Part shown: piece by piece, positions 1,717-51,485 of the stretch
Layout of the letters: every line of letters begins with the position of its first letter
Numbering within the stretch: the stretch's first letter is position 1
DNA from: Rickettsia typhi
Lineage (GTDB): Bacteria > Pseudomonadota > Alphaproteobacteria > Rickettsiales > UBA1997
Direction of reading: 5' to 3'
Length of the DNA: 64,000 bases
Assembly: GCA_945901265.1 (NCBI GenBank)
Contig: CAMDJZ010000005.1
Coordinates: forward strand, 856 to 64,855
Notes under the pieces: model-generated
Seen by the model: only the letters and a program-made list of their open reading frames with translations
Databases searched by the model: none
What the model was told of the DNA's origin: nothing
Position numbers and translations under genes: made by a program

Positions 1717-4026
1717 ATGGCTAACAAAATAAATAATAATTCAAAAAATTCCAGCATCCACTCTAATAAAAGCTCAAAAGAAATTGAAGCATTGCAATTC
1801 CATATGCAAGGTGGACAGGCTGGAAAAGTTGCAATGCATGCAACTAAACCATTAAATACACAGCGTGATTTAGCCTTAGCATATTCGCCAGGAGTTGCGG
1901 TGCCTTGCCTAGAAATCGAAAAAAATCCTGAAACCGCTTACGATTATACTGCTAAAGGAAATTATGTTGCAGTAATTTCTAATGGCACAGCTGTTCTTGG
2001 TCTTGGGAACCTTGGGGCTTTAGCAAGTAAGCCAGTAATGGAAGGAAAGTCAGTTTTATTTAAGAGATTTGCTGATATTGATTCCGTTGATATCGAAGTT
2101 GCCACTGAAAATGCTGATGAATTTATCAATGCCGTAAAATACCTTGGCCCAACTTGGGGTGGAATTAATCTTGAAGATATTCGCGCGCCAGAGTGCTTTA
2201 TTATCGAAAGCAAATTACGCGAATTAATGGATATACCAGTATTTCATGACGATCAACATGGAACGGCAATTATTTCCGCCGCAGGAATTATAAACGTCCT
2301 ACATTTAGCAGGTAAAAAATTTAATGAAATAAAAGTTGTAGTCAATGGCGCAGGTGCTGCTGGAATTGCCTGTTTAGAACTTTTAAAAGCCATGGGCTTA
2401 CCACATGAAAATGCAATTTTATGCGATACAAAAGGAGTAATCTTTAAAGGCAGAGCTGATGGCATGAATCAATGGAAATCAGCTCATGCTGTTGATACAA
2501 AATTGCGCACTCTATCTGAAGCAATGAAAGGATCAGATGTGTTTTTAGGACTTTCTGTTAAAGGAGCGGTTTCTCAAGAGATGGTAAAATCAATGGCAAA
2601 AAATCCAGTGATTTTTGCAATGGCCAATCCTGATCCTGAGATTACTCCCGAAGATGTCCATGCCGTTCGTGATGATGCAATTGTTGCAACTGGTCGAAGT
2701 GACTATGAAAACCAGGTTAATAATGTTATGGGTTTTCCATATATTTTTAGAGGCGCTCTTGATGTTAGAGCTTCAACGATTAATGAAGAAATGAAAATTG
2801 CCGCAGCCCATGCATTGGCAGAATTGGCTCGCGAAACTGTTCCTGACGAAGTAGTTAAAGCCTATGGCGGAAGAGAAATGAAGTTTGGAAAACATTACAT
2901 TATTCCTACCCCATTTGATTCAAGATTAATTTATACAATTCCTCTAGCGGTTGCTAAAGCTGCTGTTGAAACAGGTGTTGCGCGTAAACCAATTACTGAT
3001 TGGGACGAATATAAAAAGCAATTAAAAGCGCGACGCGATCCATCAGTAAACAGTCTTGGCTTTATTTTTGAAAAATTAAAAAGATCCCCAAAAAATATTA
3101 TTTTTGCTGAAGGTGAGCAAAATGAAGTAATTAAGGTTTCGGCAATGTGGCGAGATAATGGTTATGGTAAACCAATTTTAATTGGCAAGAAAGAAAAAAT
3201 TCTTGAAAAAATGAATGAATTCAATATTGCCAGTGATGGGATTGAAATTTATAATTCCTCTTTATCGGATGAAAATAATAAATTTATCGATTATCTTTAT
3301 AAAAAACTTCAACGCAAAGGCGTTTTACAATCTGATTGCGCAAGAATGGTAAAAACTGATCGTAATGTATTTGCGGCTTCAATGCTTGCTTGTGGTCATG
3401 GCGATGCCCTGCTTACAGGATTGACAAGAGGCTACAGCACTTCATTAAATGACATTTGGAAAGTTATAAGAAATAAAAAAGATCATATTGTTCTTGGAAT
3501 TTCAATGATTATTTCTAAGGGTCGAACAATTTTTATTGCCGATACTGCCTGTTCAGAATTATCATCTTCGGAGCATTTAGTTAATATCGCAATTCAAACT
3601 GCAAATAAAGTTCGCTCAATGGGCTATGATCCGCGAGTGGCATTTTTATCCTTCTCAAATTTTGGAAGTGCTTTAAAAGCCGAATCTGGTCGTATTAAAA
3701 AAGCTGTTGAGTTGCTTGATGATATGAATGTTAATTTTGAATATGATGGCGAAATGACTGCCGATGTTGCATTGAATCCGGATAAAATGTCAAAATATCC
3801 ATTTTGTCGCTTAACAGCTAGTGCCAATATTTTGATTTGCCCAGGACTTCATTCGGCAAGTATCGCCACAAAACTTCTTGAGGAAGTTGGAAATTGTACA
3901 GTCATTGGACCAATCCTTGACGGGTTCGAAAAACCTGTTCAAATTATCACAATGCGTTCATCAATTAATGATATTCTTAATATGGCAGCTATTGCTAGTA
4001 TTGACGCGATAACTGAAAAAAAATAA
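1717..4026 (+). CDS. maeB: NADP-dependent malic enzyme with C-terminal phosphate acetyltransferase-like domain
   Basis: 769 aa. Malic enzyme motifs LALAYSPGVA, VISNGTAVLGLGN and FHDDQHGTAI, followed by a PTA-like C-terminal half. Confidence 0.93.
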   Translation: MANKINNNSKNSSIHSNKSSKEIEALQFHMQGGQAGKVAMHATKPLNTQRDLALAYSPGVAVPCLEIEKNPETAYDYTAKGNYVAVISNGTAVLGLGNLGALASKPVMEGKSVLFKRFADIDSVDIEVATENADEFINAVKYLGPTWGGINLEDIRAPECFIIESKLRELMDIPVFHDDQHGTAIISAAGIINVLHLAGKKFNEIKVVVNGAGAAGIACLELLKAMGLPHENAILCDTKGVIFKGRADGMNQWKSAHAVDTKLRTLSEAMKGSDVFLGLSVKGAVSQEMVKSMAKNPVIFAMANPDPEITPEDVHAVRDDAIVATGRSDYENQVNNVMGFPYIFRGALDVRASTINEEMKIAAAHALAELARETVPDEVVKAYGGREMKFGKHYIIPTPFDSRLIYTIPLAVAKAAVETGVARKPITDWDEYKKQLKARRDPSVNSLGFIFEKLKRSPKNIIFAEGEQNEVIKVSAMWRDNGYGKPILIGKKEKILEKMNEFNIASDGIEIYNSSLSDENNKFIDYLYKKLQRKGVLQSDCARMVKTDRNVFAASMLACGHGDALLTGLTRGYSTSLNDIWKVIRNKKDHIVLGISMIISKGRTIFIADTACSELSSSEHLVNIAIQTANKVRSMGYDPRVAFLSFSNFGSALKAESGRIKKAVELLDDMNVNFEYDGEMTADVALNPDKMSKYPFCRLTASANILICPGLHSASIATKLLEEVGNCTVIGPILDGFEKPVQIITMRSSINDILNMAAIASIDAITEKK

Positions 4027-47108: not shown

Positions 47109-50100
47109 ATGAACAAAAAAAATAATTATCCACAGCCCAATCAAAACTTTAACTTTTCTAAGATGGAAGAGGAAATTTTGCAATTTTGGAATGATCAAAA
47201 AATATTTGAAAAATCTGTCGAAATACGCAACTTTTCCAATATATTAGATGAAGATAATACCTCGCCAATCATTGATAGTTGCGCCTTAAAAGACCATACG
47301 AATTGTCGCAATCACCAAAATAATCAAAGAAATGAATTTGTGTTTTATGATGGCCCTCCATTTGCTAACGGACTTCCGCATTACGGTCATCTTCTTACGG
47401 GTTTTATAAAAGATTTAGTTGCTCGCTATCAAACTATGAAAGGTAAAAAAGTTGAACGTCGTTTCGGCTGGGATACTCATGGCTTACCAGTAGAAATGGA
47501 GACTGAAAAAGAATTAACTAAGCTCGAAGGAAAATCAATATCTGGACAAATTGCCATTCAAGAATATGGGATAAAAAAATTCAATGATGCTTGTCAAAAA
47601 TCAGTAATGAAATACGCAGGTGATTGGGAAAATTATGTCACTCGTCAAGGGCGTTTCGTGGATTTTAAAAATAGTTACAAGACCATGGATCTAAACTATA
47701 TGGAATCGGTTTTATGGGCATTTAAAGAACTTCACAATAAAGGTTTGCTTTATGAAGATTTTCGTGTCGTACCATATTCCTGGGCGTGTCAAACTCCGCT
47801 TTCAAATTTTGAAACGCAAATGGATAATTCGTATAGAAAGAAAGCGAGCAAAGCGGTAACTGTTTTTTTTACTTTAAAAGAAATACCAATCCATATCACT
47901 GCAGTTAAGCATACCATTGAGGAGTTAAAATTAGCTGGGCATGAAGTTAAATTTTTTAAGTTGTTAGCATGGACAACCACCCCATGGACATTACCCTCAA
48001 ATCTCGCCTTGGCAGTAAATCAAGATATTTCCGGATATCAGATGTATTTTGATTTAGAAACTGAGTCTTTAGTTATAATGGTTTGTTCAAACACTATTAA
48101 TCAATCTGGTTACACAAGTTTTAGATTAGATGTTCTTTATCCCAAAAGATTCATTAGTTCAATTCCCCTTTCCTCCAAGGATTTAGATGTTGTAATTCCG
48201 GATCTCAAGTCAGATCAACTATTCTCTTCCCATTCCTCCAAGGAAATTGAAGAACTAGGATCTTCTCATGCAATGAATTGTATTTCAGGAAAAGAGTTGT
48301 TAGGTTTAAAATATACTCCACTTTTTCCTTATCTCGCCAATCACGAAAAAATAAAAAATAATCCTAAAGCATTCACTATTCTTCAAGGCGATTTTGTTAC
48401 AGCGGATCAAGGAACTGGAATTGTTCACATCGCCCCAGGATTTGGCGAAGACGATCAATTACTATGTAAAGCCAATGGTATTCCAACTCTTTGTCCGGTA
48501 GATGCAGGTGGAAAATTTACAAACGAAATTTTTGATATTAAATTTAATCAATCTATAAACCCCTCTTTCTTTGAACAAGAGGACTCTAAAACCCCCTCTT
48601 TCTTTCAGGGAGAGAACTCTAAAACCTCCTCTCCCTTCCAGGGAGAGAACTCTAAAACCTCCTCTCCCTTCCAGGGAGAGGGTTGGGGTGAGGGTAAAAA
48701 TCTTACTCACTTAGCCAAAAATCTTCGTAAAAACGACACTGATTTAGAAAATAAACTTTGGCAAGCAATAAGAAATCGTCAAATTACTAATCAAAAATTC
48801 CGTCGTCAACATCAAATCGATAATTACATTGTTGATTTTGTATGTTTAGAAAAAAATTTAATTATCGAATTAGATGGATCGCAACATGGATCTACTGAGA
48901 ATATTGAGCATGATAAATCAAGAACAAAAAATTTAGAAAAACAGGGATATAAAGTTTTAAGATTTTGGAATAACGAAATATTTGAAAATTTTAATGGAGT
49001 GCTAGACAAAATATGGTTAAGTTTGCAAAATGACCCTCACCCTACCCTATCCCTGGAAGGGAGAGGGAATGATCGAGATCAATTGAACGAAGGGAATGAT
49101 CGATATCAATTCATAGGAGATATTGATAATTATAACTCTTCAAAAAATGACAAAAAAGACCAAAATGAATTTGAAATTTTATCATTAAAAAATCGCCAAG
49201 TGTTCGACACTAATGACGACATAATTCGCTATCTCAAAACCAATAATAATTGGCTAAAAACTGATCAATATCTCCATAATTATCCACATTGCTGGAGAAC
49301 AGACACTCCGCTAATCTACAAAGCCGTTAGTTCATGGTATGTTAAGGTTACAGCTTTCAAAGATCGTATGGTTGAATTAAATCAACAAATAAATTGGATT
49401 CCAAACCACATTAAGGATGGACAATTCGGTAAATGGCTTGAAGGTGCAAGAGATTGGTCAATCACCCGCAACCGCTTCTGGGGTTGTCCCGTACCAGTTT
49501 GGAAAAGCAAGTCAGGCAAAATAAAAGTCTTTGGCTCGATTGCTGAACTTGAAAAAATTTCTGGCCAAAAAATTAACAATTTACATCGTCCTTTTATTGA
49601 TGAAATTGTTTTTACTGAAGATGGCGAAGAATTTCGTCGGGTTAGCGATGTCCTTGATTGTTGGTTTGAAAGCGGATCAATGCCTTATGCGCAAGTTCAT
49701 TATCCTTTCGAAAATAAAGAATGGTTTGAAGAAAATTTTCCGGCCGATTTTATTACCGAATATGTTGCGCAAACGCGAGGATGGTTTTATACTTTAATGG
49801 TTTTATCGACCGCATTATTTGATCGCGCACCTTTTAAAAATGTCATTTGTCATGGAACAATTTTAGATGAAAAATCTCAAAAACTTTCTAAGCGCCTGCA
49901 AAATTATCCCGATCCTTTGCAAATTTTTCAATCAGTTGGCAGTGACGCGATGCGTTTTTACATGATCTCACAACCAGTTATGCGTGGACAAGAATTAAAA
50001 ATCGATAGGGAAGGAAAGGCTATACAAGATAGTTTTCGTATTTCAATCAAGCCATTAATTAACGCTTACAATTTCTTTTGTCTTTACGCCAATGCTGATA

Positions 50101-50447
50101 AAATTTGTGCCAAAAGAATTGAATTAAAAAATGAATTTAAAAATATTTTAGATCGCTATATTTTGGCAAAATTAAAAAGTTCTATAAATGCTATAGATAA
50201 GGCGATGCAGAATTATGATACTGTTTTAGCTTGTGAAGAATTTAATAATTTTTTCGAAGTTTTAAATAATTGGTACATTAGAAGAAATCGTCAAAGATTT
50301 TGGAAAAGCGAAATTGATCAAGACAAGCAAGATGCTTATAATGTACTTTACACTGTTTTGACCTTGATGTGCGAAACATCTGCTCCACTCTTGCCTTTTA
50401 CTACCGAATTTATTTGGAGAAATTTGACGTTAGCAGTAGATAATTAA
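47109..50447 (+). CDS. ileS: Isoleucine--tRNA ligase, type 2 (eukaryote-like), with an in-frame foreign insertion and no C-terminal domain
   Basis: FYDGPPFANGLPHYGH (HIGH), WTTTPWTLPSN, GTGIVHIAPGFGEDD (editing), YPHCWRTDTPLIY, WFESGSMPY and KLSKR (KMSKS). About 216 codons at 48537-49184 are foreign (see the mobile_element entry). The ORF stops 10 aa after the PFTTEFIW helix. Confidence 0.9.
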   Translation: MNKKNNYPQPNQNFNFSKMEEEILQFWNDQKIFEKSVEIRNFSNILDEDNTSPIIDSCALKDHTNCRNHQNNQRNEFVFYDGPPFANGLPHYGHLLTGFIKDLVARYQTMKGKKVERRFGWDTHGLPVEMETEKELTKLEGKSISGQIAIQEYGIKKFNDACQKSVMKYAGDWENYVTRQGRFVDFKNSYKTMDLNYMESVLWAFKELHNKGLLYEDFRVVPYSWACQTPLSNFETQMDNSYRKKASKAVTVFFTLKEIPIHITAVKHTIEELKLAGHEVKFFKLLAWTTTPWTLPSNLALAVNQDISGYQMYFDLETESLVIMVCSNTINQSGYTSFRLDVLYPKRFISSIPLSSKDLDVVIPDLKSDQLFSSHSSKEIEELGSSHAMNCISGKELLGLKYTPLFPYLANHEKIKNNPKAFTILQGDFVTADQGTGIVHIAPGFGEDDQLLCKANGIPTLCPVDAGGKFTNEIFDIKFNQSINPSFFEQEDSKTPSFFQGENSKTSSPFQGENSKTSSPFQGEGWGEGKNLTHLAKNLRKNDTDLENKLWQAIRNRQITNQKFRRQHQIDNYIVDFVCLEKNLIIELDGSQHGSTENIEHDKSRTKNLEKQGYKVLRFWNNEIFENFNGVLDKIWLSLQNDPHPTLSLEGRGNDRDQLNEGNDRYQFIGDIDNYNSSKNDKKDQNEFEILSLKNRQVFDTNDDIIRYLKTNNNWLKTDQYLHNYPHCWRTDTPLIYKAVSSWYVKVTAFKDRMVELNQQINWIPNHIKDGQFGKWLEGARDWSITRNRFWGCPVPVWKSKSGKIKVFGSIAELEKISGQKINNLHRPFIDEIVFTEDGEEFRRVSDVLDCWFESGSMPYAQVHYPFENKEWFEENFPADFITEYVAQTRGWFYTLMVLSTALFDRAPFKNVICHGTILDEKSQKLSKRLQNYPDPLQIFQSVGSDAMRFYMISQPVMRGQELKIDREGKAIQDSFRISIKPLINAYNFFCLYANADKICAKRIELKNEFKNILDRYILAKLKSSINAIDKAMQNYDTVLACEEFNNFFEVLNNWYIRRNRQRFWKSEIDQDKQDAYNVLYTVLTLMCETSAPLLPFTTEFIWRNLTLAVDN
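48560..48695 (+). repeat. Four tandem ~33-bp units, each carrying a short palindrome (CTCTCCCT-TCC-AGGGAGAG), inside ileS
   Basis: Units at about 48560-48591, 48592-48624, 48625-48657 and 48658-48695. They translate in frame as PSFFEQEDSKT / PSFFQGENSKTS / SPFQGENSKTS / SPFQGEGWGEG. The patch is locally GC-rich in an AT-rich gene. Confidence 0.9.
48661..49066 (+). mobile_element. Inverted-repeat-bounded DUF559 (Vsr-like PD-(D/E)xK) endonuclease cassette fused in frame within ileS
   Basis: Left IR is 48661-48695 (CCTCTCCCTTCCAGGGAGAGGGTTGGGGTGAGGGT). Right IR is 49033-49066 (ACCCTCACCCTACCCTATCCCTGGAAGGGAGAGG), about 31/35 reverse-complement identity. Between them lies LRKNDTDLENKLWQAIRNRQITNQKFRRQHQIDNYIVDFVCLEKNLIIELDGSQHGS...DKSRTKNLEKQGYKVLRFWNNEIF, which matches the DUF559 pattern. 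Confidence 0.75.
49065..49118 (+). repeat. Imperfect 27-bp tandem duplication abutting the right inverted repeat (GGGAATGATCGAGATCAATT... / GGGAATGATCGATATCAATT...)
   Basis: Read directly. The first 20 nt differ at one position. Translated in frame as NDRDQLNEG / NDRYQFIGD. Confidence 0.8.
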
Positions 50448-50543
50448 TAAATTCTTTTATTTATCATCAATAAATTAAAATATGAATTATTTTATTTTAT
50501 TGATATAATTATTCTTTAATAATTTAAAAAATTTGGTCTCAAA

Positions 50544-51485
50544 TTAATCAGCTAAAAATTTTTCAACTTCCAATGCTGCCATGCATCCGGTACCAGCAGC
50601 GGTAATTGCTTGACGATAAATTTTATCTTGAATATCTCCAGCTGCAAAAATCCCAGGAATGTTTGTTGCTGTAGAGTTAGGCTTGGTAATTAAATAACCT
50701 TCATTATCAATTTCTAAACCGGTATTTTTGAAAATATCGGAATTTGGTTTATGGCCAATTGCGATGAAAATTCCATCAATTTTCATTTCAGAAATTTTTC
50801 CATCAACAGTATTTTTTAATTTAGCATGAGTAACTGATTTTGGATTTTCGTTACCAATTACTTCGTGCAACTCATTATTCCAAATAACTTCAATTTTAGG
50901 ATTTTTGAAAAGACGATCTTGCAGAATTTTTTCACCGCGAAATTTATCACGACGGTGAATTATATAAACTTTACTGGCGTGGTTGGTTAAATAAAGAGCT
51001 TCTTCAATTGCACTATTTCCACCACCAATCACCATTACTTCCTTATTCTTGAAAAAAAATCCATCACAAGTTGCACATCCCGAAACTCCGTAACCTTGAA
51101 ATTTTTTTTCTGATTCAAGTCCAAGCCATCTCGCTTGCGCACCTGTGCAAATTATTACCGCTTGCGCTTGATATTCATCACCAGATTCACCCTTAAGAAT
51201 AAATGGTTTTTTAGAAAAATCGACTTGCGAAATATGATCGTAAATTATTTTAGTTCCAACGTGAGTAGCTTGTTTTTCCATTTGTTCCATTAGCCATGGA
51301 CCTTGAATCGCCTCGCCAAATCCTGGATAATTTTCAACTTCAGTAGTGATTGTTAATTGTCCACCCGGTTGATTGCCATTTACCATAATTGGCTCAAGAT
51401 TAGCTCGTGCACAATAAATCGCTGCAGAATATCCTGCTGGGCCAGAACCAATTATTAATACTTTAGTTTTGTGAAGGTTGGACAT
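50544..51485 (-). CDS. trxB: Thioredoxin-disulfide reductase
   Basis: IIGSGPAGYSAA, the redox-active CATCDG and the GGGNSAIEEA motif. Confidence 0.95.
   Translation of the reverse strand: MSNLHKTKVLIIGSGPAGYSAAIYCARANLEPIMVNGNQPGGQLTITTEVENYPGFGEAIQGPWLMEQMEKQATHVGTKIIYDHISQVDFSKKPFILKGESGDEYQAQAVIICTGAQARWLGLESEKKFQGYGVSGCATCDGFFFKNKEVMVIGGGNSAIEEALYLTNHASKVYIIHRRDKFRGEKILQDRLFKNPKIEVIWNNELHEVIGNENPKSVTHAKLKNTVDGKISEMKIDGIFIAIGHKPNSDIFKNTGLEIDNEGYLITKPNSTATNIPGIFAAGDIQDKIYRQAITAAGTGCMAALEVEKFLAD

Follow-up and report, generated by a model that had tools for sequence, protein, structure and literature searches.

A naturally split ileS gene that very probably encodes a two-subunit type-2 isoleucyl-tRNA synthetase in Rickettsiales

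The ileS gene for isoleucyl-tRNA synthetase (IleRS) in a 64,000-nucleotide stretch of a genome deposited as Rickettsia typhi (GTDB lineage Rickettsiales; UBA1997; assembly GCA_945901265.1, contig CAMDJZ010000005.1, forward-strand positions 856 to 64,855; hereafter the window) stops well short of the C-terminal region expected of a type-2 enzyme, and the missing part was found as a separate gene on another contig of the same genome. It is therefore very probable that this ileS is a naturally split gene encoding an obligate two-subunit type-2 IleRS. An earlier inspection of the DNA by itself (the sequence-only reading) had noticed the early stop and offered three options: a gene with its C-terminal domain encoded elsewhere, a decaying copy accompanied by a second ileS, or a genuinely minimal enzyme. 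The first of these was the one that held, with the C-terminal part present as a 269-amino-acid open reading frame (ORF) on contig C8.

Two complementary genes for one synthetase

The ORF in the window, here called the N-piece, encodes a catalytic domain of the Rossmann/HUP type and a CP1 editing domain, has DUF559 inserted in frame, and takes in the first two thirds of ARD1, the helical domain that binds the anticodon. The features that define the two genes are as follows (window coordinates, except for the last).

47109–50447, + strand: ileS N-piece ('alpha' subunit), 1112 amino acids (TIGR00392, Pfam and PDB alignments)
47379–47390, + strand: HIGH signature, HYGH, residues 91–94 (motif search, aligned to IleRS structures)
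49881–49895, + strand: KMSKS-equivalent loop, KLSKR, residues 925–929 (aligned to KMSKR/KMSKS of solved IleRS)
50151–50417, + strand: N-terminal share of ARD1, residues 1015–1103 (Anticodon_1 positions 1–87 of 148)
50418–50450, + strand: break point, a non-conserved tail of nine residues (RNLTLAVDN) followed by TAA TAA at 50445–50450
G000:C8:1434–2243, − strand: ileS C-piece, 269 amino acids (profile, PDB, Pfam and fold matches)

The N-piece scored 793 bits against TIGR00392 (cut-off 621), the match reaching model position 791 of 861, and Pfam placed tRNA-synt_1 at residues 69–961, with Anticodon_1 following at residues 1015–1103. Its closest PDB matches were eukaryotic and type-2 IleRS (E = 1e-189 to 1e-160), type-1 enzymes reaching only 1e-75, and the editing domain was recognised from the match of residues 387–480 to the T. 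thermophilus IleRS editing structures 1wk8 and 1ue0 (E ~1e-15). In structure alignments the protein ended at the equivalent of residue 772 in T. thermophilus, 767 of 1032 in P. megaterium IleRS2 (PmIleRS2), 784 in yeast and 790 in human IleRS, leaving ~260 residues of a bacterial type-2 enzyme absent from the ORF, as the sequence-only reading had supposed. Its count of about 185 amino acids after KLSKR was roughly right (183), and its double stop was correctly placed, although this lies nine and not ten residues after the last conserved helix, which ends with APLLPFTTEFIW (residues 1092–1103). The distance of 96 bp from the stop to the convergent trxB gene (50448–50543) was exact, and as no + strand ORF of at least 60 amino acids follows the stop, the missing part is indeed absent from the locus. 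Read-through or frameshifting past TAA TAA was rejected, since the 96 bp up to trxB hold no coding sequence. The zinc-binding domain that had been listed among the missing parts belongs to type-1 IleRS; in type-2 enzymes its place is taken by ARD2, INS and ARD3 (PMC13752280), INS being a subdomain.

A search of the whole genome with the ileS model returned the window (G000:C5) and a weak match, over model positions 794–856, to a 274-amino-acid frame on contig C8. The C-piece found there aligned to residues 770–1008 of PmIleRS2 (E = 1e-21) and to positions 766–1015 of the 1033 of the MupB model, of which the N-piece covers the part up to 764. In Pfam it matched positions 92–145 of Anticodon_1 together with DUF5915, and it contains the strand SVHLQDFP and the final long helix of ARD1 as well as the ARD2/INS/ARD3 region (DUF5915); it has one Cys only and so no zinc cluster. 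An AlphaFold2 model of the C-piece had a predicted local distance difference test score (pLDDT) of 80, and its top Foldseek match was PmIleRS2 (8c9d; E = 7e-18, template-modelling score 0.65 over the whole query). The model resembled the tRNA-binding C-terminal part of both PmIleRS2 and yeast IleRS, with 8c9d and 8c8v matched over 278 columns.

The N-piece and the C-piece are thus exactly complementary, unlinked genes that together make up one synthetase and neither overlap nor leave a gap. The cut falls between the equivalents of PmIleRS2 residues 767 and 770, within ARD1, so that the Anticodon_1 profile is shared out, positions 1–87 on one product and 92–145 on the other. In fused outgroup genes the corresponding parts adjoin within 1–10 codons, and a linker of 4–12 amino acids leads straight into SVHL. 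N-piece tails in relatives are 2–10 amino acids long and C-piece heads consist of M plus 1–8 residues ahead of S[VI]HL, both variable in sequence, and tail and head combined are no longer than the linker of the fused homologues. Both pieces lie mid-contig with other genes on either side. The type-2 C-terminal organisation (ARD1-ARD2/INS-ARD3, no zinc-binding domain) is complete in content but resides on a second polypeptide, and the split enzyme is therefore IleRS2 by content, not by chain architecture.

The cut also divides the residues that read the anticodon. In PmIleRS2 the ARD1 residues N647, F651, S713 and R721 read A35 and U36, the ARD3 residues Q961, R964, K965 and L969 read G34, and either R721A or R964A by itself abolishes both aminoacylation and complementation (PMC13752280). 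Alignment to PmIleRS2 showed that the N-piece keeps the equivalents of N647, F651 and R721, with S713 replaced by N, and that the four G34 readers correspond to Q196, R199, K200 and L204 of the C-piece, which were invariant or at least 90% conserved among 48 homologues. With the A35/U36 readers on one chain and the G34 readers on the other, full anticodon reading should therefore need both, and by analogy with PmIleRS2 only the assembled enzyme would be able to clamp the anticodon loop of tRNA-Ile. The ratio of non-synonymous to synonymous substitution (dN/dS, Nei–Gojobori method) was 0.07–0.10 among the least saturated pairs of C-pieces and 0.04–0.09 for the N-piece, the latter figure being computed from its last ~390 amino acids; strong purifying selection acts on both.

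How the two products might work together can be proposed from these alignments. The polypeptides would associate non-covalently, with the N-terminal strand and helix of the C-piece (residues ~9–55) docking into the incomplete ARD1 bundle of the N-piece and completing it, and this docking would yield an obligate heterodimer that acts like fused IleRS2. Two observations weigh against a two-subunit enzyme: residues 1–20 of the C-piece, which include part of the proposed docking segment, had a pLDDT of 52 when modelled in isolation (helix 24–47 was confident); and eight of the 126 genomes of the window's GTDB family, seven of them 70–89% complete and one 96%, gave no C-piece match. The low-confidence start of the model fits a segment that depends on a partner, without proving one.

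Distribution and history of the break

The window genome is a 63-contig draft that is 97.5% complete, and a TIGR00392 search of it found no second ileS, the other class-Ia matches being ValS (C4) and LeuS (C7). This result and the low dN/dS of the N-piece speak against a decaying copy backed by a second gene. A standalone C-piece was present in 118 of the 126 family genomes (74 of the 75 of high quality), representing 15 of 17 genera; the frames were of 263–356 amino acids apart from three contig-edge fragments, and none was part of a long frame. N-pieces across the family terminate at the same position. The sequence-only reading had held that its case would fall if close relatives ended there too, which formally they do; this is no refutation, because those relatives share the split. 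The split persists down to 35% identity across the family. In G090 the two genes share a contig but lie 40 kb from each other on opposite strands; in G254, of family f17, they are separated by 1.3 Mb of one contig, and the break was also seen on contigs of 1.2 and 2.1 Mb. Relatives of the window genome derive from lake metagenomes.

Complete-frame N-pieces in other genomes of the genus measured 793–880 amino acids, and the 1112 of the window gene are accounted for by inserts such as DUF559. Long N-piece frames also occur elsewhere (G067, 1088; G080, 1048; G076, 992; G217, 1133; G254, 1029 amino acids), where breaks in the alignment suggest further in-frame inserts at other positions.

On contig C8 the C-piece lies between purM (TIGR00878) on one side and a convergent xth on the other. 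In the sequence ATGA (L009:2240–2243) the ileS-C start codon overlaps the stop codon of purM, and a GGAG ribosome-binding site precedes the ileS-C start by 7 nucleotides, features from which the C-piece is predicted to be translationally coupled to purM. The order purM then ileS-C is kept in most genera of the family and is absent in those with the smallest genomes (g3, g22, g26 and g31). Public databases held 579 standalone C-piece homologues. Both NCBI entries examined were named 'hypothetical protein', and JGI names the protein 'isoleucyl-tRNA synthetase'. A library clustered at 50% identity contained many more representatives beginning with M plus 1–6 amino acids and then S[VI]HL, down to 29% identity, and the neighbours of these divergent genes varied (atpG, lpxC/thyX, xth, trmD).

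When 300 genomes were sampled across the order, drawn from 39 families, most families had a fused ileS (frames of ~1050–1790 amino acids). A second small-genome family, f23, was split in all 20 of its sampled genomes, f38 contained one split genome (G162), and f17 contained three split genera (G173, G254 and G265), its remaining genera being fused. The N-pieces of G162, G173, G254 and G217 were located; each stops at the same loop and is placed elsewhere in the genome. The split loci and the fused loci of outgroups had no neighbours in common within ~5 kb.

A tree of IleRS was computed from the concatenated N-tail and C-region of 50 taxa (666 columns, LG+G4), and represents the history of the gene, not of the species. 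The window's family and f23 formed one split clade (support of 94 in the Shimodaira–Hasegawa-like approximate likelihood ratio test), sister to a fused f4 sequence (97). G254 stood beside a fused f17 sequence (98), and G173 and G162 fell inside other well-supported, mainly fused groups, so that the starred branches of the tree require at least four changes of state. An approximately unbiased (AU) test rejected all split forms as one group (delta lnL 191, p = 0.00014), the group tested having been chosen after the tree had been seen; a single origin of the split forms was rejected on the concatenated tree together with this test. A tree of the C-region only was poorly resolved and too weak to count events by itself. 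Unlinked genes are much less likely to fuse again than a gene is to be split repeatedly, and we therefore read these sequences as evidence that ileS was cut at least four times independently at the same surface loop in Rickettsiales. The fission is old; it is fixed in the window's GTDB family and in f23, which clusters with that family in the IleRS tree.

One genome of the order, G319 (60% GC), carries both forms. Its fused ileS (L091, G319:C254:1–7000) lies at 15–1622, and a free-standing C copy at 2521–3213 follows 0.9 kb downstream on the same strand, in a 266-amino-acid frame that has an ATG of its own three codons ahead of SVHL; the fused and free copies share 58% identity. G319 may represent an intermediate on the route to fission.

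We also considered, as a speculative and rather doubtful extension, that the ARD1 loop is a preferred fission point that selection has exploited, and not merely tolerated, at least four times in the order. A dissociable subunit that reads G34 could tune the rate of tRNA-Ile release or charging, or tie the amount of active IleRS to the expression of another operon. If so, this would extend the idea that C-terminal remodelling tunes the aminoacylation rate (PMC13752280), IleRS stoichiometry would be linked to another operon, here through the coupling of the C-piece to purM, and G319 would be a snapshot of fission by duplication and subsequent truncation.

Competing explanations and neighbouring features

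The N-piece might be a minimal IleRS by itself, with the C-piece now acting separately, as a tRNA-binding or moonlighting protein or as a loose trans-acting factor. Modules that bind tRNA, and editing domains of other synthetases, are known as free-standing proteins, the C-piece appears to be co-transcribed with purM and not with any translation gene, and in G319 a free copy is present alongside a complete enzyme. We nevertheless regard this explanation as improbable. The cut crosses ARD1 itself, so that neither piece holds a complete helical bundle, and the residues of the G34 pocket, mutation of which in PmIleRS2 kills both charging and complementation (PMC13752280), are invariant on the C-piece. 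According to PMC11685878, IleRS needs to discriminate G34 from L34 to separate tRNA-Ile from tRNA-Met, and there is no other source of this discrimination. The minimal enzyme of the sequence-only reading was likewise rejected, as the C-terminal module persists and its sequence is conserved, including the arginine that reads G34.

An assembly artefact or a decaying pseudogene, with the real enzyme elsewhere or supplied by the host, might be suspected in a draft of 63 contigs, the more so as Rickettsiales are noted for split and decaying genes. This is scarcely tenable: the same break occurs in well over 100 independently assembled related genomes, including the 1.2- and 2.1-Mb contigs, which also answers the earlier concern about misassembly at the junction; both genes are mid-contig with flanking genes; dN/dS is far under 1; and the genome has no second ileS.

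It is equally hard to credit that a split intein, or RNA trans-splicing, links the two pieces into a single chain after they are made, even though they are exactly complementary and split inteins do join other split essential genes such as cyanobacterial dnaE, given that N-tails of 2–10 and C-heads of 1–8 amino acids are variable, have no conserved Cys or Ser and are together no longer than the 4–12 residue fused linker, that Pfam found no Hint/intein domain in either piece, and that Rfam found no intron or ribozyme near either gene. A protein trans-spliced by a split intein is effectively refuted by the short variable ends and the lack of a Hint domain.

Other features of the window that adjoin or interrupt the N-piece are these.

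48699–49028, + strand: DUF559 (Vsr-like endonuclease) domain, residues 531–640 (Pfam PF04480, 130.6 bits)
50544–51485, − strand: trxB, thioredoxin-disulfide reductase, convergent with ileS-N (TIGR01292, 428 bits, cut-off 343)
50466–50504, no strand assigned: AT-rich hairpin in the spacer between ileS-N and trxB (RNA fold of 50440–50550, −15.6 kcal/mol, z = −2.49)

The DUF559 domain is translated in frame inside ileS and is no part of the split; the Vsr-like nuclease cassette spans 48537–49184. A consensus terminator scan detected no terminator at the spacer between ileS-N and trxB, and the hairpin there may be a bidirectional terminator of an AT-rich type that a GC-based scan overlooks.

The dnaE gene of this genome is also split, into a 922-amino-acid frame that covers TIGR00594 positions 1–820 (G000:C3:24459–26945, − strand; L078) and a 405-amino-acid ORF on another contig that covers positions 819–1022 (G000:C7:23272–24483, − strand; L079) and begins just ahead of the IRFGLGAIK motif. 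The dnaE C-piece is standalone, in frames of 363–452 amino acids, in the window's genus and one sister genus, and dnaE is fused (1128–1302 amino acids) in genus g3 and in other families; the dnaE fission is therefore younger than, and independent of, that of ileS. This second split hints at a lineage with unusually frequent fission of long essential genes. ValS, at 1019 amino acids (L010:2683–5742, − strand; G000:C4), seems to carry ~100 or more extra residues as inserts, positions 5–447 of PRK13208 being stretched over residues 25–575.

Relation to known synthetases and significance

The closest point of comparison is the fused PmIleRS2 (PDB 8C8U/8C8V; complex with tRNA, PMC13752280), with which the split enzyme shares the order HYGH, KLSKR, editing domain, ARD1, ARD2 plus INS and ARD3, the lack of a zinc-binding domain, and the anticodon readers except for the change of S713 to N. 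The difference is that here the chain is cut in ARD1 (767/770) and its parts are unlinked genes.

Synthetases in two parts are already known. The LeuRS of Aquifex aeolicus is an alpha-beta heterodimer (Xu et al., 2002, as cited in PMC2377443), and it is likewise a class-Ia synthetase made from two genes, the smaller subunit bearing tRNA-binding parts. The enzyme and the site of the cut both differ from those here, and the ileS cut is fixed in two families and recurrent. In A. aeolicus LeuRS the cut falls in the catalytic body and outside the helical bundle that binds the anticodon, and to our knowledge split LeuRS comes from one lineage. Separate fragments of E. coli IleRS reportedly reassemble and are active in vivo (Shiba and Schimmel in 1992, 'Functional assembly of a randomly cleaved protein', a title listed in PMC12069011). 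That case was an engineered type-1 enzyme, whereas the one described here is natural, type-2 and long maintained. The split AlaRS of Nanoarchaeum equitans and the crenarchaeal ThrRS-cat/ThrRS-ed pair also spread functions over two genes. Those are different enzymes and classes, cut between domains or so as to separate editing, whereas the ileS cut crosses one helical domain and parts the readers of different anticodon bases. Our literature searches, which did not cover subscription-only papers, turned up no account of an IleRS that is split in nature. Split synthetases as such are known; the novelty lies in IleRS being the enzyme concerned, in a cut that runs within a domain, and in a split that is fixed in two families and has recurred.

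The split has consequences for annotation, as the C-piece is labelled 'hypothetical protein' in two NCBI entries and the N-piece appears truncated. Surveys that require the type-specific C-terminal domain on the same protein drop these lineages; the survey in PMC13752280 applied such a rule and would exclude these N-pieces.

IleRS is essential, a drug target (mupirocin) and a textbook multi-domain class-I synthetase. A two-gene version fixed in ~140 sampled species, and apparently reinvented several times at one loop, would provide a natural experiment in how synthetase domains cooperate, in anticodon reading by two chains, and in the fission of essential genes.

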